From: Yuukianura sp. NJ FZ-2021 | Taxonomy: Eukaryota | Direction: 5' to 3' | Length of the DNA: 64,000 nt | Assembly: GCA_046563655.1 (NCBI GenBank) | Contig: CM102285.1 | Location: 9,052,001 to 9,116,000, forward strand | Shown: one piece after another, positions 1-47,033 of the stretch | Layout of the letters: the number at the start of each line of letters is the position of its first letter | Position numbering within the stretch: position 1 is the stretch's first letter | Translations under genes and position numbers: made by a program | Notes under the pieces: model-generated | Seen by the model: the letters and a program-made list of their open reading frames with translations, nothing else | Databases searched by the model: none | What the model was told of the DNA's origin: nothing

Positions 1-591
1 CCCTTTCTCAATTCACCCATGTCAGTAAATTCAATTTATAAAGAACTAAATTAGGATTTAGTAACCTTTTGGATAGAATCACGAGATTATTCTGCACTGT
101 TTACTAACAATTTTATGAACTGCGTCAAATTTGGAGTAGTGCGGCTACAGGGTGAAAAGAGACGCCGAAGTAGTGGAAGATTTTGGCAAGAGAAAGTTGG
201 AGGGAGAAAGCGGGCTGGATTTGGAAGGCAAGGGAGTCTTGCAAAGGCCTCTCTTTGGTACGCATCTCCCAAAGTCTTCTGCTGAACAAAGTCCAAAACC
301 TCCTACGTTAAGTCTCTAATTAACTTTCTTAGGCTTAACTTTTGGCGTACTATTAGCCACTCATCAACAAGTAATCTTCTTCAGCCGAACCCCAAACTTT
401 CTTAGTTTAGAAAACTTGGCAATTTACAGTTTCTGGTGTGAAGGCACCAAACTTCAAAGTGATTTCCATCTCTTTCTTGGTTTGGTGAAAGTCATGGAGA
501 AATTGGAAGTGTGGGCGGAGTGTTAATTGGAATTAAAATTATAATTTGTTAGTAAGTTTGTGAATTAAGTTTCTCAAAGAGAAAGTGGGGG

Positions 592-651
592 ATGAATACA
601 GCTGCTTCTGGCGGTGGAGGAGGATACAGCAGTAAGAAATGCAAGGAAGAC
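592..651 (+). CDS. Candidate distal alternative first coding exon (MNTAASGGGGGYSSKKCKED) of the DPP10-like gene
   Basis: ATG at 592, 20 open codons, then a consensus GTAAGT donor at 652 in phase 0, compatible with the phase-0 acceptor of exon 14218 (ELVAATP). No other + strand gene is seen between here and 14218. Confidence 0.6.
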
Positions 652-3103
652 GTAAGTCACGTTCTTAATGGAGCCTTACGTTGAAATAACATTTACTTTC
701 CCAATTACAAGTTTTCCTCAAAGAAATGAACAAGAAAAGTTTAATGTTCTAGGTCCAGTAGGGATACATTTCTCAGAAATTCCGACTTTACGCTCTATAT
801 CCAAGTTCACCTTGATTATTTATGCTACGCGTATATGATTTTCCCCGAAGTTATTGTTTTGTATAAAACGCGTCCATAAAACATTCCACAAAAGCAGCGC
901 TTTGAACTTTTTTGAACACATTTTGTACCTACTTTCAAAGATTTTCAAAATACTTCCTCATTTTTACCATAAAATTTCTCGTTAAGGTTCGTTCCGAATC
1001 ACCAGTAGAAAGCTTTGAATAGAAAGTACGGCGTAACATTTAACGGCTCTTCAAACTCTGCCAGCTCTTTGGCGCTGGTGATTATACGTGTCTGTGACTT
1101 TTTTTTTCCTAAACGCCAGCACTTTAGAGGCCGAAAAGACACAAAGTTTTGCTGAATTATTAGGTGGACATTTTCTGCGAAGCACGAAGCACTTGGGCTC
1201 CACATGGTGAAAAGCTTTCTCCACTTTTCGATTAATGGACAAAAAAGAGTCGCCGAAATGTCCTGCCGAATTTTTAAAGTCCTAACTTTTAGTAGCCTCC
1301 TGGTGGAGACTTCCTAGTTAGTTACTACCAACTGACTTTCCCCTCTGACGAAACTACTACTGGTTTCTCCTTAATGTGAGATACTAGTCCAGTAGTTCAG
1401 TTTACTTTATGTGCCCAACACAAGCTGAAATCCACTCCTTTTATGTCCCACCATGAATTAAGGTGGCACATAAAAAGGAAATGGGAAGTGGGACCTCTGC
1501 CACTGTCCATCTTCAAATTCAAGCTTGTCAATAAATTCGTTTTGGACTCACACAAGCGGACAGGGACGGCTTTTCCTTTAGAGCTTTTCCTCAGAGTTGT
1601 TCTATGGAAGGCGAAGAGTGTTCCAAGGGTTTAAGTTATTCCTTTTGAACTTTGGTTCTCTGAAATCCAGTGCTGTCTACATACGGACTTATGGCTCTCT
1701 TCTGCAGACTTCCTTGTGGAGTTGATGGTCTGAAAGCTCCAATTTCCACGAAATGCACAAACCTTAAGGAACTTAAAGCATTTGGAAAAAATTTGGGCCT
1801 TCAGAGAGAGAAGGAATTTGAAATTGAGCCAAAATAAGCAGAAAAGGCGAGACGCCTTTTATGACTAGGGAAAGCAGAAGAGAAAGTCTTTGCGGGAGGA
1901 ATTGAAAGGGCGGACTTTTTGCGTCCCGTAAAGAGTCAAGCTGTGTATTATTTCCGTAGGGAAAGTGTGTGGCAAACAGTGGAGCTTCAGTAGAGGGTGA
2001 CGGCGTTGTCTGAAGTGATGAAGGAACCGGAACTTGGAGGTCCTTACCTTATTCGTTCATTCATCACTCAACTAACGCCAAAAACTTTTATGATTTCGTC
2101 GTTCTTTTGTTTGATGCTCCAATCTTAGATCAAACGAAGAACTTTCAGGTTTCTTGCTATCGGTTCAAATATTGACTTTGGGAAAGTCTTTTTCCGTTTC
2201 TAGCGTTTATCAAATGACATCTTCACTACGAAACGAATGGAAGATTATCCCATTTTCCTATAATAAAATAATCACAACTTCTCGGGTTTATTTCATTTAG
2301 CAAAATGAAATTCGTAGCGTTGCAAAACTTCCTAATTTAAACTTATGGCAGAGCTAAGTTTCAAAATTTGCACTCACGAGCAAATTTTAGTTAAGAATTC
2401 AGTAGAATTTCCCAATTTCATTTTCCAAACAAGTTGAGACATCAGCAGCAAAAGTTAAAACAAAATTGTCTTCCGGATTATATTAGATTCAATCACTGGT
2501 TGGGCAAAATGACAGAAATTGAAACTATAGGTGACACGACAAAATTACAAAGCTTAGTACTAGTTTTTGGTACAGGGGAATGAAATTGTAAATGTCAAAG
2601 GATTCGGGACAAAAGTTTTTTGTTTGTTAGACTAAATTAGCAATTTGACCTTTGGAACAAAATATTCTGGAGTGACCGAAGTCATAAATCCCTTTACTTC
2701 CTTTTTCCTCTTGTGGACTCCTGCATCGTAGAAGTGAAAGCAGAAAACAGGTGAAACTGTTTTTGGCGTGACTCCCGCCCTAGTCCGTCTAGTCCTGGAA
2801 AATGTTGTCGTAATTTCATTTAAACTTGGCAAATAGAAACTTAAAAACAGAAACAGAGGACTGTGGGGCATTCCCGCTTTGCTTTCTCTTCCAAATCCAA
2901 GAGGCTCAAGTCCAAATCCCTTTACTTGGAGAAACGTCACATTCGGTAATTAGGTTTTCCCTGAGAGATGATTAATGGCTCAAGTTCAGCAGTAGCTGGG
3001 TGGACTATTTTGTTTTCTTCAGAAAACAGACCTTCCATGGGTTCAATTTGCCCAACCTAACACTACTCCATGACTCCGAAACTTAACTAACCTAAATAAC
3101 CTA

Positions 3104-3127
3104 ATGCCTCCAACCGCGTTGCGTCTT
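3104..3127 (+). CDS. Candidate alternative first coding exon (MPPTALRL) of the DPP10-like gene
   Basis: ATG at 3104, 8 codons, GTAAGT donor at 3128, phase 0. It is short enough to arise by chance. Confidence 0.35.
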
Positions 3128-6100
3128 GTAAGTAGTTCAACAACTGTGTTTCGTTTTAATCAAATGGCCAGACACTCTTCTTTTCCAATTTTCTCACACC
3201 GCCTTTGAAGGCGGCGAGGAACTTTCTTTTTATTTTCGTTTCACTTAAGTTCTCGAATGTTTTAAGAACCCGATTCATCTTCCTTTCCACGAATTTGAAA
3301 TTTGAAGAGTAGAAAATGAAGCTTTTAATGAAAATAAGCCTCCAGAAATGTCTGAAAGCACGGAACGTGACGGGGACGACTACTTTCACCGTCTACTCAC
3401 GTACTCACGTTTCTATTTAAAAAATGTAAAGTGAAAGAGCGACAGGAACTTAAATTCAACATGTTTTGAAGTAACAGAAGGCTTTTGTCATAATTTCAAA
3501 GTGTGACAGGAGTAGCGGGAATCAGACGTTTTCTTTTGAAATTTATTGAAATTCTCTAACTTTTTCGATTCTAAAAAGAAATTTCCAAGAGGCTTTTCTT
3601 TCTCTTCGGGAAAGTGAGAAAACTCAACCACTAAAAGGTAACGGCCATGCTTGAGTAAAGCGGTTTACTTTTCCGGGTTTCAACAGTTCTTGAGTAACTT
3701 CCTCCAACTTTTCCGTAGATATTTGACGTCTTGTTTTTGTTTAGAGTGTGAATTTTGAGCAAAAAATGGATAGTTTCTCGAAAAACCTACTCAATTTTTG
3801 GAGTGTCATTTTCACTGCAATGCTTGGTGAAGACTTGAGTGTGAGAAAGGCTTTGGGTCAAGGGATTTGTTATTCCAGACTCGTTCAAGTTCTATGTTCA
3901 GAGCAAGTTAAAATTCATGCCACAACGTTCATGTGGGACTGCATCATCCACATTGTCATAAAAGTAGGAAATAGGAAACCGAAATTGAGAAAAGGAAGAA
4001 AAACCATTTGAAAACAAATTCTAGAAATGGAGATCTCGCTTGCAGATCAGCATAAATTGGATAGTTGAGGATCCACTTTGTTCCTTTTTGCTTTCGGCTC
4101 AATGTGCTCAAAACTTGCGAACGAAAGTATCTAAACTAGTTGCCAATTCTCCAAAATTTGTTGTTTTTTTTTTGGGAGAAAGCAAAAGTAAAGAAAAATA
4201 CTCCAAAGTTGCCATTTTTGGAAGCAACCCTTGTTCATTTTTCTCAATTTTTTCCCTCGAAGTAGTACAAAAGACAACGATAATAAGACCAGGGAGTTAC
4301 GGCTCATCTTCAAATTCCTTCACGTTTTGCTCTTATCTCATCCCCTTTGTTTCTTTAGACTTGGGAGTAAGGGATGAAGAGCTCTTTGTGAGTTTTGAAA
4401 TTTATGTGAAATTCATGCAAATAAATGGAAAACTCAAAAAACTGAAAAGTTCTTGAGAAGAAAGTGGGAAAGCGTGAAAAACTTGTTTTCATGATCTCAA
4501 TTTATCACTTATGTAGTTAAGCATAGAGAAAGCAGAAAACGATTCTAGCAAACGTCAAAAAATGAAATTCTTCTTTCACATTCCTCCTCAAATTCCGGAA
4601 TTCTATTTTATTTATTTCAGTTGCATGAGTTTTGACTACTATACTATAAGTTACTTTAGGTTTCTATTTTTCACTCTATAATCTCGAAATGGAAACAGAT
4701 CTGTGTTTACCTTGATGGAACATTCCAGTTTTAGAAGAAAAATGTTAGTGAGTGAAATGGTAGAAAGTCAAAGTTGACAGGTAATGATGACGAGACTAGA
4801 AAATCCTTGGCCAATTCCACTTCAATCCTTTTAACAGAAATCGTAACTGGGAGATTTGTGATGGATTGTCGACAACAAAACTTAGGGTGTGGTCCTGAGA
4901 AAAAATTCATTTCAGATTTCAGAAAATTGGAAAATCTATACATCCATACACCATTCCATACAACCCTCTAATAAACGAAACAGTAAGAAGTTTTTCTGAA
5001 CCTCAGGTTGGTAAACTTGTTTCGTACTTGTTCTATTGATGCTTTGTAGCATCAAATTTGATAATCAATGTTAATTAAGCTTTCATGTTCTGGTGCCCTC
5101 AGTGATTTTTTCACGAAAAGTTTCATCATGGCAAAAACTGTTGAATTGGATTGCACGCACTCCGCATCCCCCAAAGAAAGCAAATAGTTGCTAATACTTT
5201 ACAGCAGGAGGATTAGGATTTAGGATTTTCGTAGAGTGAAAGTAGGACTCATTTCCGGTTTTAGAAGACTTTCCTTCCTTTCTTCTTCCTCTTACTTTCA
5301 CTCTACTGTTTTTCCACATTTGAAAATTTTCTAGAGAATCCCTTAGATTGTAATCTCAAATTCTGAAGTGGAAGAGAAGCACTGATCCAGCAGAGGACGG
5401 ATATGGGATTTGAAATGAGGACTTAAGAGCTTTCTCCCACGTCCCTACAAGCATAAATTAATCCTGACTTGGCCTAACCCTTTTACTAATCCAAGTTGAC
5501 TCTTACTCTAAAATTCACTTAGACAATGGGGATTTGGGCTGGACGCGTTTCAAGTTTCACTCAACAAACATAAAGATTAACTTCCTGAAATTTTAAAGCA
5601 CAAAAACGCTACCCTGCGCAGAATTCCTAAAGTTCATTATCATTTAAACACGAGCGAGAGCTCTGGTGCGTAACAAATTGGGCAAATAAGGAACAACGGG
5701 TGTTTAGCGTGGTTACTCTAAAGTTGCCGGCTTTCACTCCCGAGCGACCATGCTACGAAGAACCGCAATGCAGTGAAGCTTAGTCGTCAAAAGCTGCCAA
5801 GAGAGCAATTCACTTTCACTTTCCGTTCTGCCGAAGCGGCAAACACACTAGCAGGATGGTTGAACTTTCCCTTAGGTTACAGAAGGCAGAGGACGAAGGC
5901 CACTTTGCGTCCCTCACAGGGAGAATTGTGGAGTCCATTGACGAAGGCTCAACCGAACGTAATGACAGTCAATAAGACACAATGGACTTGGACGTACGTC
6001 AAGGCCAGCCGCTTGTCTTATTTATGACGATAGACCTTACGCTCATTCTAGTCGGTTAAACAGAACCGATTCCCAGATGATAGAAACAAATTGAGGAAAT

Positions 6101-6343
6101 GGAATACACATTGTATTCTATGTAGTATTGCCATTATAATCCTAAGTAAGTTTATTTGGAAAAATGTAAGTACAGAAATAATGAATTAGTTACAACACTT
6201 CAAGTTAGGGTTACTAACTACTACTACTTATTTTACTTCATTAACTCTATTCCGTGTTTGACACATTTGACATTACGCAAATAATTTGCAGTTGTAATTA
6301 GACCAATCACGGGATTTATATCATCCGTATAATTGCTGCGCAA

Positions 6344-7345
6344 TTACTTCTGAACTACAGCAAGTGCAAGTTCGTAGTTCAATCGATGTCCTCTTGGGCT
6401 CGATCCACAAATTAGTCCGCCCGTCTCCGTTGCACGCTCATTCAAAAATTTTTCATATTCCGCTTGCAATTTTTTGTAAGTTTCGGAACTTGGCAAACAT
6501 TCTCCAATTTCTGCCACATTACCAGCCAATAAGAACTCTGAAAAACAATTTTTTTAAGCTAATTTTTTCAAGAGAAAAGAAAATTTTAAAGAAAATCTGA
6601 AGAACCTACCGGCGCAATCTGCTTTGCTTTCGAATTGATTAAAGCCATTAAGCAATTGGAACGATTTGATTTGAAATCCAGCCGAGTTCAATGCCTTTTT
6701 GATGATCTCTGCATGATCTTTTCCCGCCCAACGCGCCAAAACCCAATCAGGAATTGGAATTTGATCTCCGATGGACTTCCATTCTGCACTGTCTTGTAAC
6801 ATTTTGATAAATTGGAAATAGTCATCAGACATTGATCCCATGAAAATGCAGCATTTCCCACCACTCTCCAACATGTTGTAAAATTTTTGCAAAACAGCTC
6901 GGTAGTTTCTGACGCTGTGAAGATAGTGGATCGTAACTATTGCTGAAAATTTTTTGTCCTTCAAAGAAAAATCTTCACTCAGAATGTCTTCATTCACATA
7001 CGTAACTCTGTCATGCGGATGATGCTCAATTGCATGTTCATAGTGTGATGTACATTTCTCGACTGCAAAAATTTTCAAATTTTTCTCTTCCGCCAGAGGA
7101 ACAAATTTTGCGAGTGTAAAAGTTCCAATTCGACAGCCGAAATCCAAAATATCTGAATTTGGTGGAATATCCAATGACTCAATTGCTGCCGTCAAATAAT
7201 TATCGTTGATAGCATGTATAAAAGCGCTATGTCGCTCAAAAGACGCCCCAAAATTATGAATTACTCTCAAAATTCTTTGAAGTCGCGAGACCTGTTTTCG
7301 AAATCGGCTTTCTTCTGCTGGTGTTGTTGCGTTCGCTTCTGCCAT
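6344..7345 (-). CDS. Class I SAM-dependent methyltransferase, juvenile hormone acid O-methyltransferase (JHAMT)-like, 2 exons (7345-6610, 6537-6344), ~309 aa
   Basis: ORF carries ILDFGCRIG (motif I), IFAVEK, HPHDRVTYVNEDI, KFSAIVTIHYLHSV and FYNMLESGGKC, typical of the JHAMT/Methyltransf family. The intron GTAGGT..TTTCAG (6609-6538) joins in frame (DCA-E-FLLAGNV). Confidence 0.8.
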
Positions 7346-7896
7346 TTTGCTTTCCCTCTTGTAATACTTTTTACACAAGTCAGAAAAGAAACTAATTCCT
7401 TTAAGTCGATTTTTCCGAATAATCACAAAAGTTCAAACTAAAATCTGTTGTGGTTCGCTAATGCATCTAAACAGGTTTCAAGCAGTAATTTAATTAAGGC
7501 AAATCAATCAACTTAAATACTCCACACACCAAACTTAATTGCCAATTAAAAATTACGAAACCTTACATAATGTCAATTTACTTGTTTTTCTCAAGAGAGA
7601 CCTTTTGGCTGTGACCAGAAATAAAGTATTTTTAAATTTGTTGTCCCGATTGAAAAGTCGCCGACCTTGATCTCAGAAAAGACGAAGCAAAAGAACTTGA
7701 TTCCGTCTTATTCTAAACACATTGATCAAGAAGTATTTCGTAATTTTAAGAAACTTCAAAATAGCATACAATTTTGCATTAGTCTTCTTGAGACACATAG
7801 CACCTACGACATGCTGTAAAAGATTGTTCATACGACTTTGTCTCGGTCATTAGGTTATTAAGTTAATCTAAAAACTTATTAACTTAATACATAATT

Positions 7897-7902
7897 AATA
7901 TA

Positions 7903-7972
<70 letters not shown>

Positions 7973-8024
7973 TTGTTCTATTTAAATACTTTCATTAAAT
8001 ATGAAGCTACTGAAGTTATATATT

Positions 8025-8116
<92 letters not shown>

Positions 8117-8177
8117 TATATATATAACTTCAGTAGCTTCATATTTAATGAAAGTATTTAAATAGAACAAAAGGGAT
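7897..8177. repeat. (TA)n microsatellites plus a ~58-bp perfect inverted repeat forming a ~210-bp palindrome
   Basis: (TA)n at ~7906-7967 and ~8027-8111. Arm 7966-8023 (ATCCCTTTTGTTCTATTTAAATACTTTCATTAAATATGAAGCTACTGAAGTTATATAT) is the exact reverse complement of ~8120-8177. Confidence 0.95.
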
Positions 8178-10637
8178 CCCATTTAAAACAGAAGTTTAGC
8201 AACGATTTATCATCATAAAATCCTCTTAAAAGACAATTACTTCCTTGAAACCTAATTACTTTAGTCAATTAAGACTTTTGCGCATCCGGAGAGTGTAAAA
8301 CTAAAACTGTAATACAGAGGCATTGTTAACAAACTGAACAAAATAAGCTAGTACAACTTTAGGACATGCCCTGAAACGAAGAAACTTTCAATAAATTTGT
8401 TCTTGACTAGAGCCCCTGTTCTCGTGTATTCTTTTCTTGCAAAGTAAAAAAAACTTGGCATTCATCTCCCCTTTGTACTCCTTTGTACTTTGAAATCTAA
8501 AGTTCTCTTGGCCTTCTCTAAAAACTAAAGGTTTTGTGTTATCGTCTTTTTTTTAGAACGTCTTCCCGTTTCGGGCTCATTAATTTCCTCGAAAGAGAAA
8601 GTTTTGGTTAGTTGGTGGGCAGAGAAAGGCTTTGTAGTGAAAGCAGTGACAGAACTCCTTTCCTGCAATAGCACTACAACTCCCGCCTTTTAGTCTGATT
8701 TTTATGCCATAAATTCGTGGGACGGGTGGGCGTTGTTTGCCAAATCTTAATTTAATGCTTTCTGGGCGGCCAGGCCTCCCGGCTGGGGTCAGGCTGAACC
8801 CATAATTCAAAAGGACTGATGTTCCCAGTGCTTTCACTTCCACTTTCCCCACTTTCAACAAACAACTGAAGTAATGGCACACAGGATATGTGTGTGCTTT
8901 GTTGTTACGACTCATTTTGATTAGACTCTCTCTAGAGCTTATGAATTGTATTACAAAAGTTTTAGGAAGCTCATAAATTCACGAAAAGTTCTCTTATAAA
9001 TTTTAAATTTTGTGAAAAGTTTTGAAAAATTGTTCCAAAAGGAAATTAATGTTCCAAGCAGCCTTTATTTTATTAGAGTCTAAAGTGCTTAGACACTCTT
9101 CAACAAAATTGGTCTAACACGGCCAATAAGAGTATGGAACAAGTGGGTGTGCCAAGAAATTGCACAGGTTCAATTTGTCTAAAAAATCGTCCAACACTTT
9201 CCCTGTTGTGCGGCACAGGAAGCAATTTGGACAACTCCTGGAAGAACACTGTAAATAACAGTTTCTAGAAGAAAAAAAATCTTCCGTGCTCATGCATCAT
9301 TTATTAGTGTCACTTTTATTTGTTTCCATATTTTATAAACTTTGCAAGCCAAGTGCCATTAATCAAAATTAGAGTCAATTCACTATGGGTCACTGATTTT
9401 TTGAAAACTTGAATGCTTGGTTTGCTCTAAATATTAAATGGTGTTTGCAAATACTTAAGGCGGGCTTTGAAGGCTTTGAGTTTTTAAGGCTTTACTTGAT
9501 AAACTGAAATAAGTTAAACTTTTTGCTTTCTAAAATATTTTTGATCGGAGAGTCGATTTTTTGAGTGGGTATTGTGAAAAAGTCGTAACTTTTTTTTTTT
9601 AGAAAAAAAAACGGAAACTTGCTAAAAGGCTTTTTTGAATGCTTATTCATGTGGGACGGATAAGGAAAGTCACGTTCTGTCGTCAATTATTGGTCATGCC
9701 TCGTGGGCTAGACAACTCCTTAGAAATTTTGTGGTTGTACTCTACGTTCAAAACTTTTTCTAAAAAGAAGTTGTTTAGAACGTTCCCGCTGTCAAACTGT
9801 AAATCCGAAAATGTTATAGCAGACATTTTAGTATCCATGCAACTGCTTTCTCCAGTTATAAAAATGGCTTCGAAGACATCACTTCGAAGCTTGGTTTACT
9901 TTCTCCGCCAGAGTTTTTGAATTTTTTCATTTTTTTCTTCCATGTTCAATGCGCCAAAACTTTTTTCAAGTTGTACAAGATTTATGTCAAAAATTGAGTG
10001 ATATGTTGACTTTTGTCTTGTCTTCTCCTTTCCCTTCGAAAATTCTGCTGAGATCGTGCCCGACGTATGAAATGTGGGATAATTTTGCGCCAAGTTGCCC
10101 ATAGATAAATTGATAGAAAGCTTAGAATTTCTGTAGAAAACGGACGAACTTTCTCCTGAACTTTCTCTGGGGAGCGTCTGTTTATGTGCCCAATAGTCGT
10201 GGTTGATTTATCGGAAGGAAGACAGAAACAATAACACCGTTTTATTGGAGATGATTAAGTGTCTTGGGGCTGCTTTTCCACTTTCTGCTGCCAGTTTGAA
10301 TTAGATTTCCCCGGGGGAGACCTCTGCACCAACTTCGATTACGCTTCACTTATCATTAGGATCACACTTTCTGCTTCCATCCTCTTCTAGACGCGACCAA
10401 AGACAAACTCATTTAAATATGCATCATCACGTACAACCCAAATTCGAAGGAAAAAGTAAAGTTGTTTCTCTTTTTTTTTTAGAATTTCCAAGTAAATTTT
10501 TCACTGCAACAAGTGCAATTACTCTCCTTTTCCGCCCAAGTTAAAAGCTTTCATAAAAGCAAATTTAAAAAAACGGAATTCAATGAGTGTTTTTTTTTCT
10601 CCAAAACTTTTACCACGGTTTGTAATTACGATAAATA

Positions 10638-10873
10638 TAGCGAGGTTTTTAAATATGGTGACACTTTCACCAGAAGTTGATTTGAAAATGTGCCTTAATT
10701 AACCAGTGTTAATTAAAATTTAGGATCTACACACCTAATCGCAATCTACAGCAACAACTAGCTCCGGCAATGATGTTAGATTTAAAACTGAACTGTCCAG
10801 TGATATTTAATTTAAATCAACTTTTAAAAATCAACTTCCGGTGAAAGTGTCACCCTATTTAAAAACACCGCTG
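10638..10873. mobile_element. MITE, Tc1/mariner-type (copy A)
   Basis: ~45-bp imperfect TIRs (TAGCGAGGTTTTTAAATATGGTGACACTTTCACCAGAAGTTGATTT ... AAATCAACTTCCGGTGAAAGTGTCACCCTATTTAAAAACACCGCTG), ~236 bp, non-coding. Shares the ACC(A/G)GAAGTTGATTT core with copy B at 23004. Confidence 0.75.
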
Positions 10874-11995
10874 TGTGAAAGTCTGAGAAATCACCAAAAC
10901 CAAAATGTTTAACGTGTTACTATGCATTACCAGTTCTTAGATGTAAAATTCAGTTCTTGGGATTCTGTAATCGAGGTATAATCGGTATAGTGCTTGTTTG
11001 GGTATGCAAAAGAAACCACTGCAATAAGTGGTTAGATCGTATGAGGTGTAGTGATTTGTCGGAGGCAGAGGCATCGTGCAAAATATTATCTTGTTTCCAG
11101 TAGTACGAACTACTATGTTGTTTTCTGTAGAATCTGCTTTCACTCCATCTTCCACGGAAGTGAAAGTTACGCTGCGAGCTTTCCAAATGCTTGAATTAAA
11201 GTGCGGCAGATGTCACTGTGTGTTAGAACACTTTGGTTGTGCCTCTGAACACTGAAGGAGAACGTTATGTTAGTCTTGGCTTGGCTCAGGACCAGTTTAT
11301 TGATCTTCCTTCCGAGGAAATGAGTTTCCACTGTTTGAAGGCTACGGTGAAAGATCTCTCCTTCGTAGATTTCCCGGCTATTTCCAGAACTGAGCCTTCC
11401 AGGCCGTGGTTCAGAGTCTAAAGGACATAGGAGCAGCAGGTTTACGTGGCTACATGTGCTTTAGCCTTCGTTTGGGAAGAGCTCGTGGACTGCTGCTCGA
11501 ATCGGAGCATTTCATCCAATTTGCTCCTTCTCCCAACCTTCTCCCGGGTCTTTCTCTGAAGAAGCCTTTTCAATTTCCAACAACATCTCTCATCCTCCTA
11601 TCATTCCAAGTCTGAGCCCAGAACTAGACTTAAGTTGGTCGCAGAGCGGAGGTGGGTAGCTGGGAAGTGCATAGGAGTCGTGTTAACAGGACGAACAGAT
11701 CAGCCAAATCCAATTATGACCAGTTCTCCAATCAATCTAAAGATCTGCCTCTCCCGTTTCCGACGGTACTTCTTTCAAGTGAAGCATGTAAGGTCTCCTC
11801 GGTTGTTGTTCCTTTAAACAATTCTAAATGTTCAATGGATATTGTTGCTGCTGTTGCCTGGCATTTGTCGTCAATGTGGCTACGCTGCATCCCGACAATC
11901 TTCTTGCTAACTGTTGAGTGACACTCGGTGTGGCTAAGAGCATTAAGAAATAAATTTCAAATATAAGCTAGCCGTTTCTGCTCAAAGTCAGCAAT

Positions 11996-14900
11996 ATGGG
12001 TGAATTCGATGCTCCAGATGAGGTATGTCGCTTTCAAATTCCAATTTTCATAGTATAAAGCACAGCGTATTGATTTTGAGTTTTTCGAATTTTTTTAATA
12101 GTTTAATAGTAATTAACTTTTCAAACCTTAATTATTTCTGATACATGCAGAGACTTAAGTACGAACTCTCCCAAAAAAAATGATACGACTGTTGTTCTAC
12201 TTTCTAAAATTGTTGACTGCTGCAAAAGTGTTAAACTTGTGAAGAAAATAAGTAAAAAATGGTTAAGGTGTTGCGTGAAATGATGCTGTGAAAGTGGTTT
12301 CGTTTTGAAAGCATGTCAGAAATGTTATGGTAAGAAAAAGACGTCAGAAAAAGATGAGCGTAACCTGCTGTTGCTTTTCAAAATTTGACTTTTTCCACTT
12401 GGTATACAAGTTCTGTGAACTCTGGGAGGTATTTTTTTTATACTATTCAGAAGGAAGCGGTTGAGGAAGAGTGAATACAAGCGTAACTGAAGCTATCTCC
12501 ATGGTTGAAATGTTTAGATTTTGGGAATCTCTGCCAGACTTTACAACTTGACAAGTTCCAGCTGCCAAAATCTAGGCGTGGATTTCTTTTGCAGTCAAAA
12601 TTTTGCACACACTCGTTTCCTCCTTTTCTTTCTACTTTCTGTTTCTGTGAAAAATGTCAAAAACGCCTCATTCTTTCGAAATAGCGAAGACTGGTAATTA
12701 CTGGCACCATTCTGAAGTGAATTAAATTGTTCAAAACATTCAAATTCCGAATTCTTGGTTTCAAAATTTCAAAATTTAAAAAAAAAACCTAAAAACTAAA
12801 GAACTTGATAAAACTTTGTGAATTTAAAAGTGAAAAAAAAATTGTTTGCTATTGGCATAGCGTGGATTGTGTGCGTAAACACTTTTAAAAGGCAAACCCA
12901 GGTTCTTCCCATTTTGGCCAAAATGCTTTCTCCTTTTTTTACCAAAAAAATTGCTGGAAAGTGTGGGAAATCTAGAATTTCCAGTTGGAAATATCATATA
13001 GGTTTCACCTCTATTCTCTTACGACGCATTTCCTGGGATTTTTCCGTTTCCAAGACTTTCCTTAGTCCTGATCCCATTTCCTAGCACTTCCAACTTACCC
13101 CGTTTTCCATACCTCAGGTTCACTTTGCTTTCACTACTTCTAGCATTTGGACTCTCTTTATTGAGCCGTGAAAGAACTTATAGGTAGAAGGGAAATCATC
13201 CTAGCATCCGGAAATAAACCTCCTCAAATACCACAAAACCCTGCACTAGCACATATTCCTCAGTGGAGAAAGTTAGAGAAAGGTCAAACGGAAACTACGT
13301 AGGATTCAACAAACCGTAGAGGTTTCACGCACATTCTGAGTGATTCTAAATCTATTTTAATATCATTCTGTCCAAGATAGCGAAGAGTTATGATTTGGGT
13401 TAGAGTCTATTACGCAATTTGTGGGTTCTGTGAAAAGTAAAAGTTGAACTTTCACCTGTTTCTTGTAGTAGTAAATCCTGTTAAAATACCTGGAGAAGAA
13501 TACAACTGAAGCAACCGCAAGGGAATTCTCAATTCCCAGCCACTCATTCCATCACTTACAGTCGGGAAAACCTTCTCCCTTCAACGAGTCCATATCTTAA
13601 CGTTAGTCCAGGAATCGAAAGTGTAATCAGGAAGTCTAACGACTTGGGATATGGGTTTTATTGCACCCTTTATCTTCAGACAATGGACTTTAGTTCCTGA
13701 AAAAAAATTCTCAGAGCTTCGTAGCAAAAGTCTGAAACTACGTCAAACCAAGCCATACGCTATTAGTTAACATAGAATGTTCATAGGAGATCTAAGGAAA
13801 AAATTGAGAATTTTGCTACTGCGAGAGGGTTTCACAAAAATGAAAAATGAAACTTCATTTCGCTTCTAAATTTTATAATTACGATACTTTCACTAAAAGT
13901 TACATTCTTTGAAGAACGAGATTTCAATTTTTTGGTACGCTCTTGGGAAAGTCTGAAAAGACTTTATAAACATCAAAGGCATTAATTTCAGGTTTCTTTT
14001 AATTTTTGAAAATTTCTTCTTTTGAATACAAAACTAGAAGCTTTTGACCCAAATTTTTTCCCCAAAATTATTAAGCTCTTTCCTCATCTTTGGTAAAGTG
14101 GACTGGAGATTTCAGAATTCAATTCATCAACTGCTAAAATTAATTTCAAAATTCATCTGCGATGTCCCACTTTTGAGGAATCTGCTAATGACATCCGAGT
14201 TTTCTTTTGTTTTTCAGGAACTAGTGGCAGCCACTCCGAGTCAGAAAAACTGGGCTGGGATTGTGATTTCCCTGTTTGTCATCTGTGCAGTCTGTGGCCT
14301 CATTCTCTTTTCCATCTACCTCCTTCGTCCTCCAGACGAAGGGCCCAGGGTCAAAGGCAGAAAAGTCAACCTCAATGACACCACGACGGGACACTTCAAA
14401 GTCCCGCCCTTCAATGGCTCTTGGATTTCGGGTGAGTACCCTCTTGACACATTTACACGATATTCTTGTGTGCCAGAAATTCCAGGACTCTCGTGGACGG
14501 TCACACATATGCTACCAACATGTTTAAGACCCAACCGAGTGGGTGTTCTTACGAACTACAAAGCAATTCTACGAACTACAAAGAATAACATAATAATTCT
14601 AAAATCTTAATATGAAACGGTTCATATGGGACCGTTCGTAAGTGTCAGGCTATGGCATCAGCCGTGACAAAGTGAAAAGATAGCAACAGACGTCGGTTAC
14701 TTTTCTCCAGCCACTCCAAAACTAAAATGCTTTCGTTGTTCAGTCATGTTGTGGTAAACAACGTGAAAACTTCGTTTGGCCACAAGGGCTTTCGAGTTTC
14801 AATTTCGCGGGAAAAGGAACACCAAGTGAAAGCGACACTTTCACTTTGCATGGAAATGTGTGTAGTAGAGTAACAAATGTCTTTTAAATTACACGTAGTA

Positions 14901-17900
14901 ACAGCTGTAAAACACGCTCAACCTCAAACCCACTACTCTACACTTTACTTTCCACTTTCTCCTTTTCATCAGTGTTCTCACCCAGCGGAAAACCGGAGTT
15001 TAGAGTTTACAGTACGAGAGTTGGCAGATTTTGTCCCTCTTCCTTTCTCGACATTATTATAAAAAATAGTGGAAAATTTTGTAAAGAAAATTGGTCAAGA
15101 GAAAAAAGGAAATAAAAAAAAAGAGCTAACAAGCCGAGCAAAGTTTTGTTGTCTCTTGTTATCTGTGATACAGCAGTGTAATAAATTGGCGTGACATCAA
15201 TTGAGCACAAAACAGCCCAACTAACGACATGTTGCGTTTGAAACAGACGGAAGTGATTTACTGCTAGATGAAAGACATGTTTGTTTTCGAATCTTTCATA
15301 TTTTTTGAAATTTACTTTGTCATACGCAGAGAATGAGCTGATCTTCCGTGATTATTTGGGCGGTCTTTCAATTCTGAATGCGGACTCCCTCCTGTCTCGC
15401 CCCTTTGTGTCAAATTCAACATTTGTAAGTTCTATTTCTAGCGTTCTTTTCATCTTCTTTTCCGTTTTTCCAAGGGCTCAGAGGAATAGACAAGAGACGT
15501 GAATCTTCGAAGAGGAGGAAGTGCTCTTATGATAAATTGAATCCATAGTGAAAGCGAAGGGAAAAAGTAATTTACGTTAATTGAAAAAGACTTAGGAGCT
15601 CAAAGGGTTGTGACAGGAGCCTTTTTATATTTTAATTTGGGAATAACTGGGAAGGCTTCACGTCATGTTTTTCCAAGAACCTCGAAAAAGGTGCTATTAG
15701 TGTCAGGAAGAAGGTTTTCAAAAGCTTTTGAAGCCTAGAAAAACCAACTTTTCATAGCAAATTAAATCATTTTTTTTTACTGTAGTTAGACAAAATTGGG
15801 AGGTGAAAGTTAGTACTTTTTCTGGGTTTTCTGTTCTAAAAAATGTTGTAATCGGAACAATGTTTTTTTTCTTTTCTTTTTTAATTTTTTTTTACAGAGA
15901 CGACTGGATGCCGACGTCTACTCGGTTTCGCCAGATCGTCAATTTATTCTTTTTAGTCATGAAGTGAAACCTGTTTGGGAGTTTTCACATCTTGCCAAAT
16001 TTACAGTCGACGACATAGAAAATGGGTAACACTTTTAACTTTCTCTGCTTTTTCGTGTTATCGAATGTGGATTCTGTGCTTTCAGTTTCAACGGTATTTT
16101 CAAAATTACAAAACACCAGAAATTGAGTCTGCACAAGCAGTCGAAAAAAAAGTTTGGTTGAAAAAATTCAAAAAAAAAAATTGCTGGTGGGCTTTGAAAA
16201 ATTTGAAATGCAAAAGATTTACATGGCAAAAAGAAATGGGCTGATAACATACATGTACTGAAATGATGAAAATATGGAAACTTTCTTTTTCGTTTTTTAA
16301 AAGTCAAATGCGGCAATCAGTCATTCAACGCGCTTGTACTATTTTTTTTCTAGTAATTCTCCACATCTTTTGACATGTAAATTTGTTTGTATTTATATAT
16401 TTGGTTTCACTCTAGGCATCCATGTCCTCTGACCCCGTTTCCAACGCAGTGTAGACTAGATGACCCGGATCAGCCCAAGTTACAACATGCCGAATGGGGA
16501 CCAACTGGAAACTCTCTGGTGCTCGTCTACGAAAACGATATTTACTACAGAGCCAATGCACGGGACAATACAACAAGAAGGATTACACAATCCGGGCAAC
16601 CGGGCATCTTCTTCAACGGCATTCCAGATTGGATCTACGAAGGTAAAGAAAACTTGCAACTTTCCCAGCATAATTCGGCAACTTCAAATTTAAGTAGCGT
16701 CGAGAGGGCGGGGTCTTTAGCATAATTTTTTAATTTTCGTCAAGAACGTTAACGTTCCTTAGTTATTGCTCCAGAGCATAATAATAACCTTTAGTGCCAT
16801 AAGCATTCGACAGGAGACATATTTCATTTTGATGGTTCGTACCATATGCCTCACTACTTTTCAAATGGATCAGAGACGGAAAAGATGTGAACAGCCTGTG
16901 CTGCCTAAATGGATATTAAAGAACCTGTCAAAGACAAGCGTCACCCTACGTCCTGTCTCTCAAAAAACTAATTCGTGTCATAGTGTTTTCATGGCCTGTC
17001 TCTTATTTCTAACCTAAACCTAATGTATTTTTCAGTTGAGATCCTCAAATCAAATAAGGCCCTGTGGCTGAGTCCTACAGGCGAAACGCTACTCTACGCC
17101 TCTTTCGATGACACAGAAGTCGGAGAGGTCATTTATCCATGGTATGCTGACAACAACCCCTACCCGCTGCTTAGAAGACTCAGATATCCTAAGGTACTTG
17201 GTCCATTTTATGTGTGTCACTTTATGTGTAGCTATAAATTTTACAGCCGAAATTATTGGCACAATTGAGGCCAAGCTGTCAGCCTAAGCTAAAGTATCGA
17301 CAGAAGCTTAATAACCTGGGGAAAGTTGTTTACCAAGTCCCTGATGACCACTACACTTATGATGTTAGCAGAAAAGAGTTATAATGTAGGAGTTCTTAAG
17401 CTTAAGTGTTCTTTGTTCCTGTCTAAAAGACAATGAAAGCTGCTCCAATCAAGTTAATGGTTCTCGGGAGACTAGGAGAAAGTTTCAAAAGCACGTCCTT
17501 ACTTCTGTTTTCCTTATTTCCACTTACTGCTCGACTTAACAATCCCATTTCAAACTATTTTATCAACAACTGCCAGCAGCTCAGACTTACTTTCTCCACC
17601 TACATTCCAAATGAGAAAACAAACTTTGGAAAGAAACCCATTTTGTTCAAATTGTTCTTTCAAATCCATTACTCACCCGAGGCTAATGGTCAGACTAATC
17701 CAAAATTCAAACTTTCTCTTTCCAAAGAAAGTTAGGTTTTTCTAAACAAAAGAGAGATTAGCAGGCTTAAATTTTTCACAGCGCCAAAATGTTAACCTTA
17801 GCTCATGATTTCAACGAATCCAGAACTACTGCTAAAAGCTGATTTGGCTTGAACAAAGTCACGAAAAGCTCTTACTTATTGATAATTATTTTAAAATATG

Positions 17901-20900
17901 TATAATTAAAATGTGTATTAAAACACTGTTTGAATGCGACATTGGTGATTCTTTTTAGGCGGGAACGGTCAATCCTGTAGTCAAACTCTGGACAGTCAAC
18001 TTGACCGACCAAGATGCAAAACCTATGGTTATAAATCCTCCAACAGAATTGGAATCCATGTAAGACTATAGTAAAACTTTAGAAGACAGAAATCTTTCTG
18101 GCTAAAGTTACTGAACCTCATTCAATTTCAAAAATCTATGTTCACAATTGTTGACAATTTCAGCGACCATTACATGACTACCGTTGAATGGGTAGATAGT
18201 ATCCATGTTTCCATTGTGTGGATGAACCGAGAACAAAACTTGTCCATCATTTCCCTCTGCACGCTCAAGGGCAATGTTTGGAACTGTCAAAAGGTAAGTT
18301 TCATTTTTCAAAAGTTGTTGTTTTTAGTTGTGCTAGGTATTGCGTATGAAATTTGAGTGAAAGCAGAAAGAACAGAGTAACTTTGATTCCGAAGATTAAC
18401 AAAAATTGGAATGGATTCAATTCCGCATTGGAGTTGCGGATAAAGCCGTAGGTTACGTGCATTATTTAATTGGTTTTCTATTCAATTACAGGTTTATAAG
18501 CTGAGCGTTAAGCCACAGGGAAGTGGTTGGCTCGAATTTCCACCACCGCCCATCTACTCTGCCAATCTATCGAGCTGTCTCCTCAGAATTCCCTGGAGAG
18601 ATGGTGGAACTGGCTACTTTTCCCACATCGTCTGGATGGATCTGTCCACTTTCAGGGAAGTTCCAATCACGCAGGGGCCCTTTGAAGTCACTCAGATCTC
18701 AGCCTGGGATCAAATCAACCACTTCATGTAACTCCAAAGTTGCATAATTCATTTAAAAGTCTGTTTAGAATTTCATAGCTTCAACTTTCTCCTCGATGAA
18801 AAGTGAAAACATTTTTTCAGAGTTACGTAGAGTTCATGCAGCGCAGTAGCTTTGTTTCCTGTAGTTTTATAGCGAGTTTGTGCATGAACTATTTAAAAGT
18901 AATAAGATGTCTAAATATTGACATTTTAATGCCAAATGAAAGTTGTGCGCCTAATGGAGCTGAAGTCCATTTGCCAAATGAGGCTTGCCTCTATAATTTC
19001 AATTTTGAAACAGAATTTCAGGAGTTGCAGAATTTCCATAGGCTAGACTGAAATTTTTTTTGTATGTTTTTGACCAGATACTTCCTTGGCGTTCCGCCTG
19101 GAAGGGCTGGAGAGCGGCATCTGTACAGAACGACAGAGAAAGCCTTCAATTCCACAACCGTCACATCTCCTGTCTGCTTAACCTGTCCTCTGACCAACAG
19201 CCGCCTCCGCCATTCCAATCCATTTCAGCCCCACAATCTGATCCTAACAGACAACGGAGGATCAGCAGGCGGAGAAAGCTATCCGAACTCCACACTCCCT
19301 TACTCGGATTGGATCGGTCGAAAATCCACAGATCATTTCCATAAGTCCTCACTTTGTTTGTACAACCAAGTCACTTTCAGCCCCAAAAACACTTTCTTCG
19401 TCCGAGAATGCTTGGGACCGGGCGTTCCAGCTGATATGCTTCATGCTGCTCCTTCAGGTCAACTCCTGTTCATTCTCAACAACAACACTGCGATGCGGCA
19501 AGAAGTGGCGGATTTGGGCCTTCCGCTCGTCCGAACGTTTCCGGTTGAAGTGCCGGGCAAGTATCACGCTCCCGTCCGACTCTTCCTACCGCCAGGATTT
19601 CGGGAAGATGAAGATTTCAAGTTTCCGTTTATACTTCATGTGTAAGTCAAATTTTCAGAACTTATTGTTAAATGGACGTCTGCTTAGTCAGAAATTTTGA
19701 AAACGCCTAATGCCCGGCAAATGGTAGACGTCCAGCTCTCGTACTTTCGCTTACAAAAAAAATTTGGATACTCTATTTTGGTTCAAAAATCTCGCTTTTA
19801 TAAGTCTCAATTTTTGACATCGCAGAGAATTGAAAACCCGTCAGAATAACTTTCTTTCTACCAAAGTAAACTTTTTAAAATGTTTTCAAAGATTTTGAAT
19901 TGCGATGTGTGAATCGCTTGAAAACTTTTCTTTCCACTTCTCAACTTTCTCCTGAGTTCTAACTTTCTTTTCAAATCTTTCGTTTTCAAAAGTAACTCTT
20001 TAGAAAAACTACTGCCTTTTCTATAGATTTAATTTCAAGTTCCTGAGATCCGATCTGATGGATTCTCATGAAATTCCCACTTTCTCTCGCTCAACTTTTC
20101 TCCTTTTGGATCTGATTTCTATATGTCATATCCTAACTTTTGAACTTTTCTTTTTGTTTTGATAGGGCTGGAGGCCCAGGGTCTCAAATTGTAACTGAAA
20201 AGTGGAGCATATCCTGGTCGTCGTATCTTACGAGTCAAAAGAACTTTATCGTGGCAGAGATTGATGGAAGGGGGACTGGAGGGCAGGGAGAGTCCCTTCG
20301 ACATTCCGTCTACAGGAAATTAGGAACTGTAGTCATCGAAGATCAACTGGAAGTTGTGAGGTGAGCTAACTTTGTTATTGGAAGTGAAAAAGCACCACGC
20401 CCCAAATTCTCATTTCAACACGCGCTTAATCCTCCTTTAGTTCCCCCAAATTGAATTCCCTTGAGCCACATATCTTTGTTGTGCAATTTTTTAGAAAATC
20501 CAATTTAGCCTGAAAGTTTCTAAAAGCGTCTCCAACAAAAGATTAGCCAAAGAACCTATTTTCTATGAAACTCTAAATTCCTATTTGATTACAACCTTAA
20601 CCGTGCCTAACCACGTAACTTTCACTTTTTCCTTCCAGGTACCTGAGAGATCAGTTGAAGTTTATTGACAGTGAAAACATGGCGGTCTATGGACATGGAT
20701 ATGGAGGTTACGCTGCTCTTCTGACTTTAGCTGCCGATACGACCGGAATCTTTCGTTCAGGAATTGCAGTTTCTCCTATAACAAAATGGGAATTCTACAG
20801 TAAGTTGATTTTCAAAGTAACTTAACCTCATGAGCAAAAAAAAATTCTCATTCTATACGCAAAGCCAGCGAAAACTGAAAAGCTTGAAAAAGCGTCCACC

Positions 20901-22042
20901 ACGAACGTTTCGAAATTGCTTTGCTGGAAACAGAATTAGGTTTAGATAAGTTATGTAAAACAGGAGGAGGTGGAGGCTTACAATTGCTTTCTCCGAAAGC
21001 AGTTTGAACAAGATTTGGTTTTAAAACGTGCCCCGCAGTTGTGGGAGGAAACCAAAGGGAAAGTTTTGACTTTGAGAAACTCTTGTCTCGAGTGGTCTCG
21101 AAGATTTAAGTATGGAATTTTGCCATTGGCTACCATTCGGTACGGAGTTTGTTCCAGGACCGCCACATTTTCTTAGGAACAGAGTTTGAAAAGTTTAGAA
21201 TGAAATTAGTGAGGCGAGAAACTAACTTTTAACTTTCTTCTTTCTCTTCACAGAAATTTATTTCTCAATTTCCAAAACTATTCCAATCTTCGGTCTGAAA
21301 ATTCTTCTCCACATTCGAAGTTTTTAAAATTCATTCCTCCTTTCAGTGGAATGTGCTTTATTGAAATGTTAACATCTTTCAGTTTTGACTTAATTTCGAA
21401 TTTTCATTTTATCGATTTTTTATATAAATCTTTGATAAAATTATGAAGAGAAAACAGACAATTTTGGAATGCTTGCTAGATTCAGGGACTTCTAAACCTA
21501 AATTAACCTAAGAATTAGCAACAGGATGGATGCTAAATTTTGAGAAAACTTCGGCTGGGTGTAAAATGCGGATTTTGAAAATATTTGTTAAATTTTAATT
21601 GCAGATTCCGCGTACACGGAACGAATCATGGCGCTGCCGAATAGTACCGATAACTTTCGGCGCTACGAGGATGGTGACGTGACTGGTGTGGTGAAGCAGC
21701 TTCACAATAGGAACGTATCATTACTTATCATTCATGGGACAGCAGACGAGAAAGTTCACTACCAACACACACTCCACTTAACAAAGGCTCTCATCAGAGC
21801 ACAAGTTCCTTTTGTAGAACAAGTAAGTTTTCACCAACTAATTGGATTTACCAAAAACTTTCTCCCACGCTATACGATTTCTTTGAAATTCCCCTCTCCA
21901 GGTCTATCCAGATGAGGGTCATGAACTATCCGGTGTAGTGGATCATCTGTACACCACTATGGAAACATTCCTGGACAGAAACTTTGATCCTATGAACTGG
22001 GAGGATTGGGACAAGGCCAACTTCCTAGGAACCAAGCCATAG
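11996..22042 (+). CDS. DPP10: Inactive dipeptidyl peptidase (DPP6/DPP10-like, S9B family pseudo-enzyme), 14 coding exons, ~864 aa
   Basis: Exons 11996-12022, 14218-14431, 15330-15424, 15898-16025, 16416-16642, 17036-17193, 17959-18059, 18164-18293, 18492-18727, 19078-19641, 20166-20360, 20639-20799, 21605-21822, 21902-22042 join in frame (2595 nt). Type II TM after KNWAG; FNGIPDWIYE, LRYPKAG, IDGRGTG, HGTAD and YPDEGH are present, but the nucleophile motif reads GHGYGG. The symbol denotes family likeness, not proven orthology. Confidence 0.9.
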
Positions 22043-45511: not shown

Positions 45512-47033
45512 TTAAGTTGCAGTTGTGGCGAAGGATTCGAAATCACTTTCTCTTATAATTCTAGCTACTGCTTTGTAGTCATGGTGTTTCTTATGAGCAC
45601 TGTAGACATGAGTCAGAAGAGAGTTACGTGAACTGTAGACACGTCCACAGATTAAGCACTTCCCTTGGATTCTGGCGCAGTGGACGTCTTCCATGTGTCG
45701 CTTCAAAGCGGATAAGCTGCTAAGCACTTTGCTACAACTTGAGCACTGTACGTAGCGTTTCGTCCGTCGTTGACCGCTGAAACGAAAACCAAATTAATCA
45801 GAAACTTTTGCAAAAAAGCTGCTTAAGAATTGAATCTGAACTAACGTTTCGTCAATGTCGAAAAGTACTTGGCCCTGTGAAGACATCGTAGATTTCAGGG
45901 GCTCCCGCATCATTCTCATCAGAATTCCATCTCCGGAAGTACCGAATTTTTTGTGCACGTTCTGCTTAGAGTCATAGCCTCCTCCTCGATTCCCGTTTCC
46001 AGAAGTAGAAGAATGTGCAATGCCCCATGACCTGGACGTGACCTGTTGTTGCATTATGGGCAAATGCTTATGGTCAAACGAGCCTTCAACTTCCATAGAC
46101 ACTTCTGGCAAGAGCGGAAGGCCTTCGTTGTCACTCTCTCCGCCATCGTGAGGAGTCAAGGGGTCACCGGGAGTGTCATCTTCGTCATCACCGGACAGAA
46201 ACATTATTTCCTTTTCTTCGTAATCTTCATAGTCGGATCGTATGGAATGGTTATGGTTGAGCTGTCGCTGTAAAATGGACGTCACCTCGGCCTCGCCCTT
46301 GGTCACTTGCCTGTCCTTGGGTTCGTTGTTGTTGGAATGGTCAGTGGAATGGATTTGGTTATCGGGGGATCCAGTGGATGGACGGGAATGGTTAGTTGGC
46401 GCATGAGCAGTGACGGAATTTTGATTCATTTCGGAATGTTCTTGGGAATAGGTTTGTTCGTCGGCTAACAAATCTTCGGCTTCCTATGGATCAGAAACAT
46501 TTACAAGTTTTAGTTCGAACTCCGTGAAATCCAAACGATTTAGCTATTATGTTTTATAGTGTATACCTCCTCATCAAAGTCCATTCCTTTAATCTTCAAA
46601 ATCCGGGCAACATGGAGGAAGGACTTGAGATCCCTTTGTTTAATTTTGATCTCTCCTTCGTAGATAAATTTAAGTACATGTTCAAAATCTCTGGAACAAA
46701 TTTGCGGCAGGAGTAGGACGGAATGGTGGTCACCAGGAACGCTCTACATTCACAAACGATAATTGAATTTAAACTGAAACCTTGTGTATACTACGTAATT
46801 ACATACTCCTTGTTTAGAATATATTCAAACTACGTTTGTATGCTTACTTGCAGAACGTGTTTGAGGTAGGGGCTACTTGCAGACAGCAGAAGTCGGTGGG
46901 CCTTGAACAGTTTCCCTTCAGTAAAAATCGTCGTATCCACAAATGCTTCTTCTTGAAACAGGGAGGCAACGGACTCTAGCAATGACCCCTGGTTATCCCA
47001 ACGCAGCCTAAAAAGAGAATCTTTCTCCGCCAT
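45512..47033 (-). CDS. Tramtrack/broad/abrupt-type BTB-C2H2 zinc finger transcription factor, 4 coding exons, ~421 aa
   Basis: Exons 47033-46848, 46743-46567, 46483-45846, 45776-45512 join in frame (1266 nt). BTB: FRLRWDN...FVDTTIFTEGKLFKAHRLLLSASSPY...LKFIYEGEI...LKIKG. Two C-terminal fingers: CSSCSKVLSSLSALKRHMEDVH and CLICGRVYSSRNSLLTHVYSAH. Confidence 0.9.

Follow-up and report, generated by a model that had tools for sequence, protein, structure and literature searches.

A 64,000-nucleotide stretch of DNA from the springtail Yuukianura sp. NJ FZ-2021 was analysed (assembly GCA_046563655.1, contig CM102285.1, positions 9,052,001 to 9,116,000 of the forward strand; referred to as the window). 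Near its 5' end, at 592-651 on the plus strand, it carries a 20-codon open reading frame (ORF) that is very probably a genuine distal alternative first exon, conserved in other hexapods, of a gene for an apparently inactive dipeptidyl peptidase (DPP) related to DPP6 and DPP10, the auxiliary subunits of Kv4 (Shal) channels. The exon and the gene are designated exon 1a and gene A, respectively. In some vertebrate neurons, fast A-type inactivation is provided by the N-terminus of such an auxiliary subunit, DPP6a or DPP10a, and not by Kv4 (PMC3973911, PMC9409431; here and below, published sources are drawn on for those of their passages that bear on these points). For the springtail exon, a similar block of the Shal/Kv4 pore by the encoded peptide may be the most likely single mechanism; this view, taken by analogy, is tentative, and we give it somewhat less than an even chance.

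The distal first exon and its gene

Exon 1a, of which 592-651 (+) represents the coding part only, consists of 20 codons including the ATG and is translated into MNTAASGGGGGYSSKKCKED. A splice donor, GTAAGT, follows codon 20 directly in phase 0 (652-657, plus strand). The nearest in-frame stop codon on the 5' side is the TAA at 553-555 (+), with no further in-frame ATG before 592. The first intron of the 1a isoform extends from 652 to 14217 (+) over 13,566 nt, is in phase 0 on both sides and is closed by a polypyrimidine tract and acceptor, ttttcttttgtttttcag, which occupies 14200-14217 (+) and ends in cag. This intron contains a second first exon (exon 1b, described below) and a nested methyltransferase-like ORF on the minus strand. 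The joining of 651 to 14218 in RNA is a prediction drawn entirely from orthologous gene models. Comparison of the 20-residue peptide with PDB gave no match at E-values up to 10.

The common exon, located at 14218-14431 (+), begins with the juxtamembrane sequence ELVAATPSQKNW, continues into a hydrophobic transmembrane segment, AGIVISLFVICAVCGLILFSIYLL, and reaches the start of the ectodomain, with a donor, GTGAGT, following from 14432. It matched proteins of three other springtails, Folsomia candida (isoform X2, 75% identity), Allacma fusca (75%) and Orchesella dallaii (70%), all annotated as inactive dipeptidyl peptidase 10, and no match at 100% was obtained. The remaining exons of gene A are found at 15326-22036 (+), as bounded by tblastn high-scoring segment pairs (HSPs), and are colinear with the DPP10 proteins of Orchesella and Folsomia; in total, 14 colinear HSPs with the Orchesella protein and 13 with the Folsomia protein were obtained across 14215-22036 (+). 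Both of these proteins carry PF00930 (DPPIV_N) and PF00326 (Peptidase_S9), and the fold of gene A was assigned via their colinear HSPs. The ELV..P.Q(R/K)NW juxtamembrane motif and the transmembrane segment are both present in gene A, in agreement with the layout of a type II membrane protein. Judged by its predicted product, a type II membrane protein akin to DPP6 and DPP10, the auxiliary subunits of Kv4/Shal, gene A is a springtail DPP10-like gene.

In one exon of gene A, at about 20640-20801 (+), GHGYGG is read where active DPP4-type enzymes read GWSYGG, the catalytic Ser being replaced by Gly, while the Asp (HGTADE) and the His (DEGH) are retained. An earlier note on this DNA had placed a 20-codon ORF with a phase-0 GTAAGT about 13.6 kb 5' of the common exon of a catalytically dead DPP. 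Its description of the exon proved right in every checkable particular, and the loss of the catalytic Ser bears out what it said of the enzyme.

The position at which variable and common sequences meet was located by comparison with known structures. The common exon aligns from its residue 1 (ELV) to the DPP6 chains 7ukg_I (from residue 18 on, E-value 1.2e-10 over residues 1-71 of the exon) and 7w6t_I (from residue 76 on, E-value 2e-10), and the differing N-termini of these two chains end at residues 17 and 75, respectively. Because the common exon aligns from residue 1 to both DPP6 chains, the boundary between the variable and the common part falls on this ELV in springtail and vertebrates alike.

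Relatives of exon 1a in other arthropods

Peptides similar to that of exon 1a were found at the N-terminus of three other gene models, in each case joined to the common sequence at ELV: MNAASVNTGGGGLGKKDKD in Orchesella dallaii (P0006), joined to ELVAATPSQRNW (ELVAAT); MNTVQSGGGQGVASSGKKGDALE in isoform X2 of the damselfly Ischnura elegans (P0169), joined to ELVAST; and MNTVQSSHGGHGPVNKKGDALE in P0259, joined to ELVS. P0259 is an unlabelled protein, as is P0144 mentioned below, and 'isoform X' names are automatic annotations. We refer to first exons of this type, starting with Met-Asn, as the MN class. The hexapod members occupy the same place ahead of ELV, and their peptides, 19-23 residues long, all begin with MN and have a Gly-rich central part, KK and acidic residues at the end; Cys is present in the window peptide alone. 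A homology search with residues 1-90 of the Orchesella protein yielded no more than 3 proteins out of 74 candidates.

The strength of this similarity was estimated with 20,000 shuffles of the window peptide per comparison, in which Met1 was fixed and the composition kept. The observed local score was reached by 1 shuffle for Ischnura, by 42 for Orchesella and by 63 for P0259. In a six-frame scan of the whole 64 kb, divided into 12,780 windows of 40 residues, the 592-651 locus ranked top with the Ischnura X2 peptide (score 49, the next being 35) and with the Orchesella peptide (39, the next being 36), and second with the P0259 peptide (33 vs 38).

Orthology was examined in a quick maximum-likelihood tree of 43 rows (LG+G4), supported by the Shimodaira-Hasegawa-like approximate likelihood ratio test (SH-aLRT) only, in which the window genes were entered as joined HSP translations and P0144 stood on a long branch. 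Gene A and the proteins of Folsomia, Orchesella and Allacma group together (SH-aLRT 100), and this springtail clade is nested in a larger hexapod group, 14 rows in size, with the Ischnura gene among them (SH-aLRT 98). Gene B, a second DPP10-like gene of the window described below, falls into the other hexapod group, together with the genes of Drosophila and Anopheles (SH-aLRT 98). Membership with gene A or gene B was taken from the tree, as the summed tblastn score is biased towards A. Exon 1a is conserved between Collembola and Odonata, because genes that are orthologous by the tree carry similar peptides before ELV. The conservation near orthologous genes on which the earlier note had touched was thus found, with MN-class peptides heading the models of the Orchesella and Ischnura X2 orthologues.

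For a wider survey of N-termini, 117 proteins were newly added (from the best 120 of 305 matches), of which 97 carried the juxtamembrane motif within 260 residues. Starts of the form MNYSG or MNYSS before [ED]LV were detected in five further models, those of two paralogs of the millipede Chamberlinius hualienensis, of the horseshoe crabs Tachypleus tridentatus (isoform X1) and Limulus polyphemus, and of the scorpion Hadrurus spadix; the MNYSG start is common to millipede, horseshoe crabs and scorpion. The MN-class set therefore has nine members (the window, Orchesella, Ischnura, P0259, two Chamberlinius, Tachypleus, Limulus and Hadrurus), and all nine peptides have the MN start, a basic residue as the first charged one, at position 13-24, and a net charge of 0 to +3. 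MN starts as such were seen in 11 of 110 distinct N-termini, including two that are plainly unrelated, P0264 and P0003 (an intron read-through ORF). On our reading, what holds the arthropod-wide class together is the start dipeptide and the layout only, which falls short of demonstrated homology, and the connection with vertebrates stands on no firmer ground.

The enzyme site was compared between P0004, P0005, P0006, P0241 and P0259 on the one hand and P0169, the millipede protein P0021 and P0216 on the other. The catalytic Ser is replaced by Gly in gene A of the window, Folsomia, Hadrurus and P0259, and by Asn in Orchesella and Allacma, whereas it is kept in Ischnura (GWSYGG), Chamberlinius and the horseshoe crabs. 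Since MN-bearing genes include members of both kinds, the MN-class N-terminus is not tied to the loss of the enzyme site.

Exon 1a is one of at least two first exons of gene A. The coding part of the second, exon 1b, is located at 11996-12022 (+) and reads ATG GGT GAA TTC GAT GCT CCA GAT GAG, encoding MGEFDAPDE; it is followed by GTATGT in phase 0 and matches MTEFEAPDE before ELVAAT in Allacma (P0005). Exons 1a and 1b lie 13.6 kb and 2.2 kb, respectively, 5' of the common exon and 11.3 kb apart. The N-termini of the relatives likewise form recurring classes, each ending directly before [ED]LV. Exon 1b belongs to a short acidic class, M..D..[YF]DD(E), which is widespread in insects and is represented by MPEQDNYDD in Drosophila, MTEADNYDD in Anopheles, a prawn and a spider. 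Another class, ..GEMDALLLG[RK]TR, is found in Folsomia X2, Neocloeon X3 and one Tachypleus isoform, and the remaining ones are ..KRVVxxLPGKE and the MN class. P0216, P0222 and P0224, three isoforms from a single Tachypleus gene, are distinguished only by what precedes DLVESG. Scans of 1-14217 (+) in the window gave nothing convincing for the ..GEMDALLLG[RK]TR and ..KRVVxxLPGKE classes; these exons may be absent or may lie 5' of the window start, 591 nt before exon 1a. The best such match, a candidate 1d-like exon at 13201, was rejected, being interrupted by stop codons.

Likeness to the vertebrate exon 1a and alternative roles

In vertebrates, exon 1a of DPP6 and DPP10 encodes an N-terminal MNQTA motif that is kept from fish to human (PMC9409431, PMC3366920). 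Fast inactivation changes upon deletion or point mutation within MNQTA, and Kv4.2 is blocked from the inside by the peptide in soluble form (PMC9409431); removal of the first five residues abolishes the effect on inactivation, and the mechanism passes the tests for Shaker-type N-type inactivation (PMC3973911). The variable N-terminus has 20 residues with a conserved Cys-13, to which redox and hemin sensitivity are ascribed, and the C13S mutation leaves inactivation unchanged and abolishes only redox sensitivity (PMC3968176). The earlier note had named the MNQTA of exon 1a, the 20-residue N-terminus and the pore block, all in agreement with the literature (PMC3968176, PMC3973911, PMC9409431, PMC3366920).

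The comparison between springtail and vertebrate exons covered the published motif, the length, the position of the Cys and sequence fragments only. Both are alternative first exons of a DPP6/10-family gene, encode about 20 residues and are joined to ELV...P.Q(R/K)NW. In each, the peptide opens with Met-Asn and runs on uncharged to basic residues that cluster towards its end (KKCK at 15-18 in the window; 13CPPGKGH19 in human DPP6a, PMC7239824). Both host proteins lack the catalytic serine, and their cytoplasmic parts are of similar overall length (20 + 12 residues in the window). Thus the parallels in length (20 codons vs 20 residues) and in the basic cluster that the earlier note had drawn stand. 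Its likeness of the form MN-TA-S stands in part: the Met-Asn start is shared, and the exact MNQTA is not, the window having MNTAA (identical at 3 of 5 positions without a gap and at 4 of 5 when one gap is allowed). The parallel of a single Cys fails, as the window has Cys-17 in place of the vertebrate Cys-13, none of the eight other MN-class exons has a Cys, and C13S is without effect on inactivation. Together with a Gly5 run, MNTAA and Cys-17 set the springtail peptide apart from its vertebrate counterpart. Exon 1a, known here from sequence alone, is of the same design as that of vertebrate DPP6a/DPP10a with a different motif.

Two other systems may be compared. The fly DPP10 (NP_609051; Shiina et al. 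2016, PMC4873792) is an arthropod member of the DPP10 family with the same juxtamembrane and transmembrane region; it binds rat Kv4.3, shifts its gating and speeds its inactivation, and this region, which mediates Kv4 binding, is the conserved part (PMC4873792). Unlike gene A, it is placed with gene B in the other of the two hexapod paralog groups and keeps peptidase activity, and the Drosophila models seen start with MPEQDNYDD. By analogy with the fly protein, itself of gene B's group, and with the vertebrate family, we infer that the product of gene A would bind Shal. The ball-and-chain of Shaker, Kv1.4 and Kvbeta1 resembles the springtail peptide in having an N-terminus that begins uncharged and becomes positively charged further along, borne on a flexible tether (PMC3973911); the sequences are unrelated, and there the ball is carried by the channel or by a cytoplasmic beta subunit, not by a single-pass membrane protein.

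The proposed mechanism may be described as follows. A distal promoter would direct a transcript in which exon 1a is spliced in phase 0 onto the common exon at 14218, while a proximal promoter would lead to the use of exon 1b (11996-12022) in place of 1a. The 1a isoform would then have a cytoplasmic tail of 32 residues, 20 from exon 1a and the rest from ELVAATPSQKNW, ahead of the membrane segment. With its free Met-Asn N-terminus and with KKCK placed behind 14 flexible residues that carry no charge, the tail could enter the open Shal/Kv4 channel and block it while remaining tethered, and the outcome would be a fast N-type inactivation specific for this isoform, as conferred by exon 1a in vertebrate DPP6a and DPP10a. 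Met-Asn N-termini are substrates of NatB-type acetylation, and this could explain the conserved start with or without pore block.

A further step, about which we are doubtful, is that the MN-class exon is the arthropod orthologue of the vertebrate exon 1a, and that a DPP-borne Met-Asn blocker of the Kv4/Shal pore, present in the protostome-deuterostome ancestor, still works in springtails, damselflies, millipedes and horseshoe crabs. P0144, a non-arthropod DPP6/10-like protein, starts with MNQETTAAAM and has 42 residues before ELV and a vertebrate-like juxtamembrane region. Its MNQETTAAA start would fit an ancestral exon 1a, and P0144 could bridge the gap from MNQTA to the MN class of arthropods.

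Several observations weigh against pore block as the role of the peptide. MNQTA has no exact match, the peptides reading MNTAA (window), MNAAS (Orchesella) and MNTVQ (Ischnura); the Cys of the window is at 17 rather than 13 and occurs in one of the nine MN-class peptides; and beyond MN, the Gly-rich run and KK, the peptide is of low complexity and poorly conserved. Outside the hexapods, the chelicerate MN-class N-termini are 34-42 residues long, as against 20 in the window, and the window peptide matched the MNYSG peptides no better than its shuffles did (1862 of 20,000 reaching the score for Hadrurus, 1027 for Limulus and 17996 for Chamberlinius d). As to function, the fly DPP10 is the only arthropod one studied in the literature searched, the passages drawn on from that study give no comparison of N-terminal isoforms (PMC4873792), and no invertebrate DPP isoform assayed for N-type inactivation was found in the open-access papers and preprints searched (subscription journals being outside the scope).

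Whether an exon exists at all, and whether it belongs to gene A, can be judged from the window itself. The ORF is short and Gly-rich, and its donor scores a modest 3.0 owing to the exonic GAC, the matrix being a crude one, built from consensus frequencies and serving as a rough filter only. A chance ORF next to a chance donor is nevertheless highly improbable, given that two or three other hexapod genes have homologous first-exon peptides in the corresponding place. In addition, the plus strand of 1-14217 holds just three phase-0 candidates of the strict form ATG...GTRAGT, and in these 14.2 kb 592-651 is the sole one of at least 12 codons, the other two having 8 and 11. Because homologous peptides are joined to ELV in other gene models, and because of the shuffle scores, we conclude that 592-651 is not a chance ORF. 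It is just as remote a prospect that 592-651, instead of opening gene A, is part of another transcript or is preceded by upstream coding exons. The window holds only 591 nt 5' of exon 1a, and the ..GEMDALLLG[RK]TR class (e.g. Folsomia X2), which was not found in the window, could sit further upstream; the in-frame stop at 553 argues against upstream coding sequence, as do the Orchesella and Ischnura models, which begin at the homologous Met and are joined to ELV. As for a different host transcript, the one plus-strand ORF scanned within 652-14217, at 4025-4453, is without a Pfam family, and the sole Pfam match in 652-14217, among 11 selected ORFs scanned, is the minus-strand methyltransferase-like ORF.

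Given a genuine exon, two alternatives to pore block concern what it does. The conserved peptide may have another isoform-specific role, in trafficking or surface expression, phosphorylation, lipid interaction through the basic cluster, or binding of a cytoplasmic partner, with Met-Asn reflecting N-terminal processing. The Gly/Ser-rich, low-complexity character of the peptide, of which the hexapods keep only MN, the Gly run and KK, speaks for such a role, as do the unmatched MNQTA and the longer chelicerate N-termini; in vertebrates, non-'a' variants of DPP6/10 such as DPP6K have distinct effects that do not involve pore block (PMC3973911). This alternative is, on its own, somewhat less likely than pore block in our view, since gene family and exon position are the same, a Met-Asn N-terminus is a known determinant of pore block there (PMC3973911, PMC9409431, PMC3366920), and the order of an uncharged stretch and then basic residues is kept in all nine peptides. 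Alternatively, it may be the distal promoter that matters, through tissue- or stage-specific expression, the 20 residues being a largely neutral leader. Two first exons 11.3 kb apart imply two promoters, the conservation of the peptide sequence is weak, and DPP6 and DPP10 of vertebrates have alternative first exons on a common core that mark different expression patterns (PMC3973911). We regard a neutral leader as improbable, because the MN start, the length and KK are kept from Collembola to Odonata though identity over the remainder of the protein is no more than about 40-60%, and because the MNYSG start is kept among millipede, horseshoe crabs and scorpion. Taken together, another role and no role beyond the promoter are about as likely as pore block; each alone is less likely.

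Surroundings of gene A and significance of the exon

Gene B, the second DPP10-like gene, is located at 24291-35825 on the minus strand, tail-to-tail with gene A and with about 2.2 kb between the ends. It was recognised as a second, more divergent set of tblastn matches to the Orchesella and Folsomia queries, running from 35825 down to about 24291 (-), and its common exon begins with DLVVASPSDRNW. Gene B retains the full catalytic triad (GWSYGA, HGTGDD and DEQH), and a dead paralog (gene A) here adjoins a possibly active one (gene B). A short acidic ORF, MDDHFIEEE followed by GTAAAG, is found at 41066-41092 (-), 5.2 kb 5' of the common exon of gene B, and is a probable first exon of this gene as judged from its sequence. 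No MN-class first exon for gene B was found up to 45.5 kb.

Within the 13.6 kb first intron of gene A, the nested frame on the minus strand at 6557-7432 is uninterrupted over 292 residues (stop to stop, with a Met near the start) and matches Methyltransf_23, an S-adenosylmethionine-dependent methyltransferase domain (E-value 7.9e-11). The same intron includes, at 7895-8113, a long AT-type dinucleotide microsatellite that translates as IYIYIY.... Beyond gene B, neighbouring spans were recorded at 45515-47051 (-), 49255-49797 (+), 50690-52342 (-), 54789-57400 (+) and 59526-62081 (-). The neighbours are a gene with BTB and C2H2 zinc-finger domains, one for an insect cuticle protein (Chitin_bind_4), one whose product has WD40 repeats and a Gly-rich N-terminus and, at 54789-57400 (+), one of the C2H2 zinc-finger type; the ORFs at 59526-62081 (-) gave no Pfam match.

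Gene models with MN-class exons are already in public databases, and among the open-access papers and preprints searched none describing these exons was found. The literature searched treats inactivation by MNQTA as a vertebrate feature, kept 'from fish to human' (PMC9409431, PMC3366920). The arthropod DPP10-like genes share the vertebrate design, having several first exons that are used alternatively and meet the common part in the same place, at ELV, and one class of arthropod exon keeps the Met-Asn start, the uncharged stretch and the basic cluster. Based on this shared first-exon design and the layout of the MN class, the origin of subunit-borne N-type inactivation therefore becomes directly testable. 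If pore block is false, exon 1a is an ordinary isoform-specific N-terminus. If it is true, the mechanism would predate the protostome-deuterostome split, and the diverged 'balls' MNQTA, MNT.. and MNYSG would provide a naturally occurring series for structure-function work.

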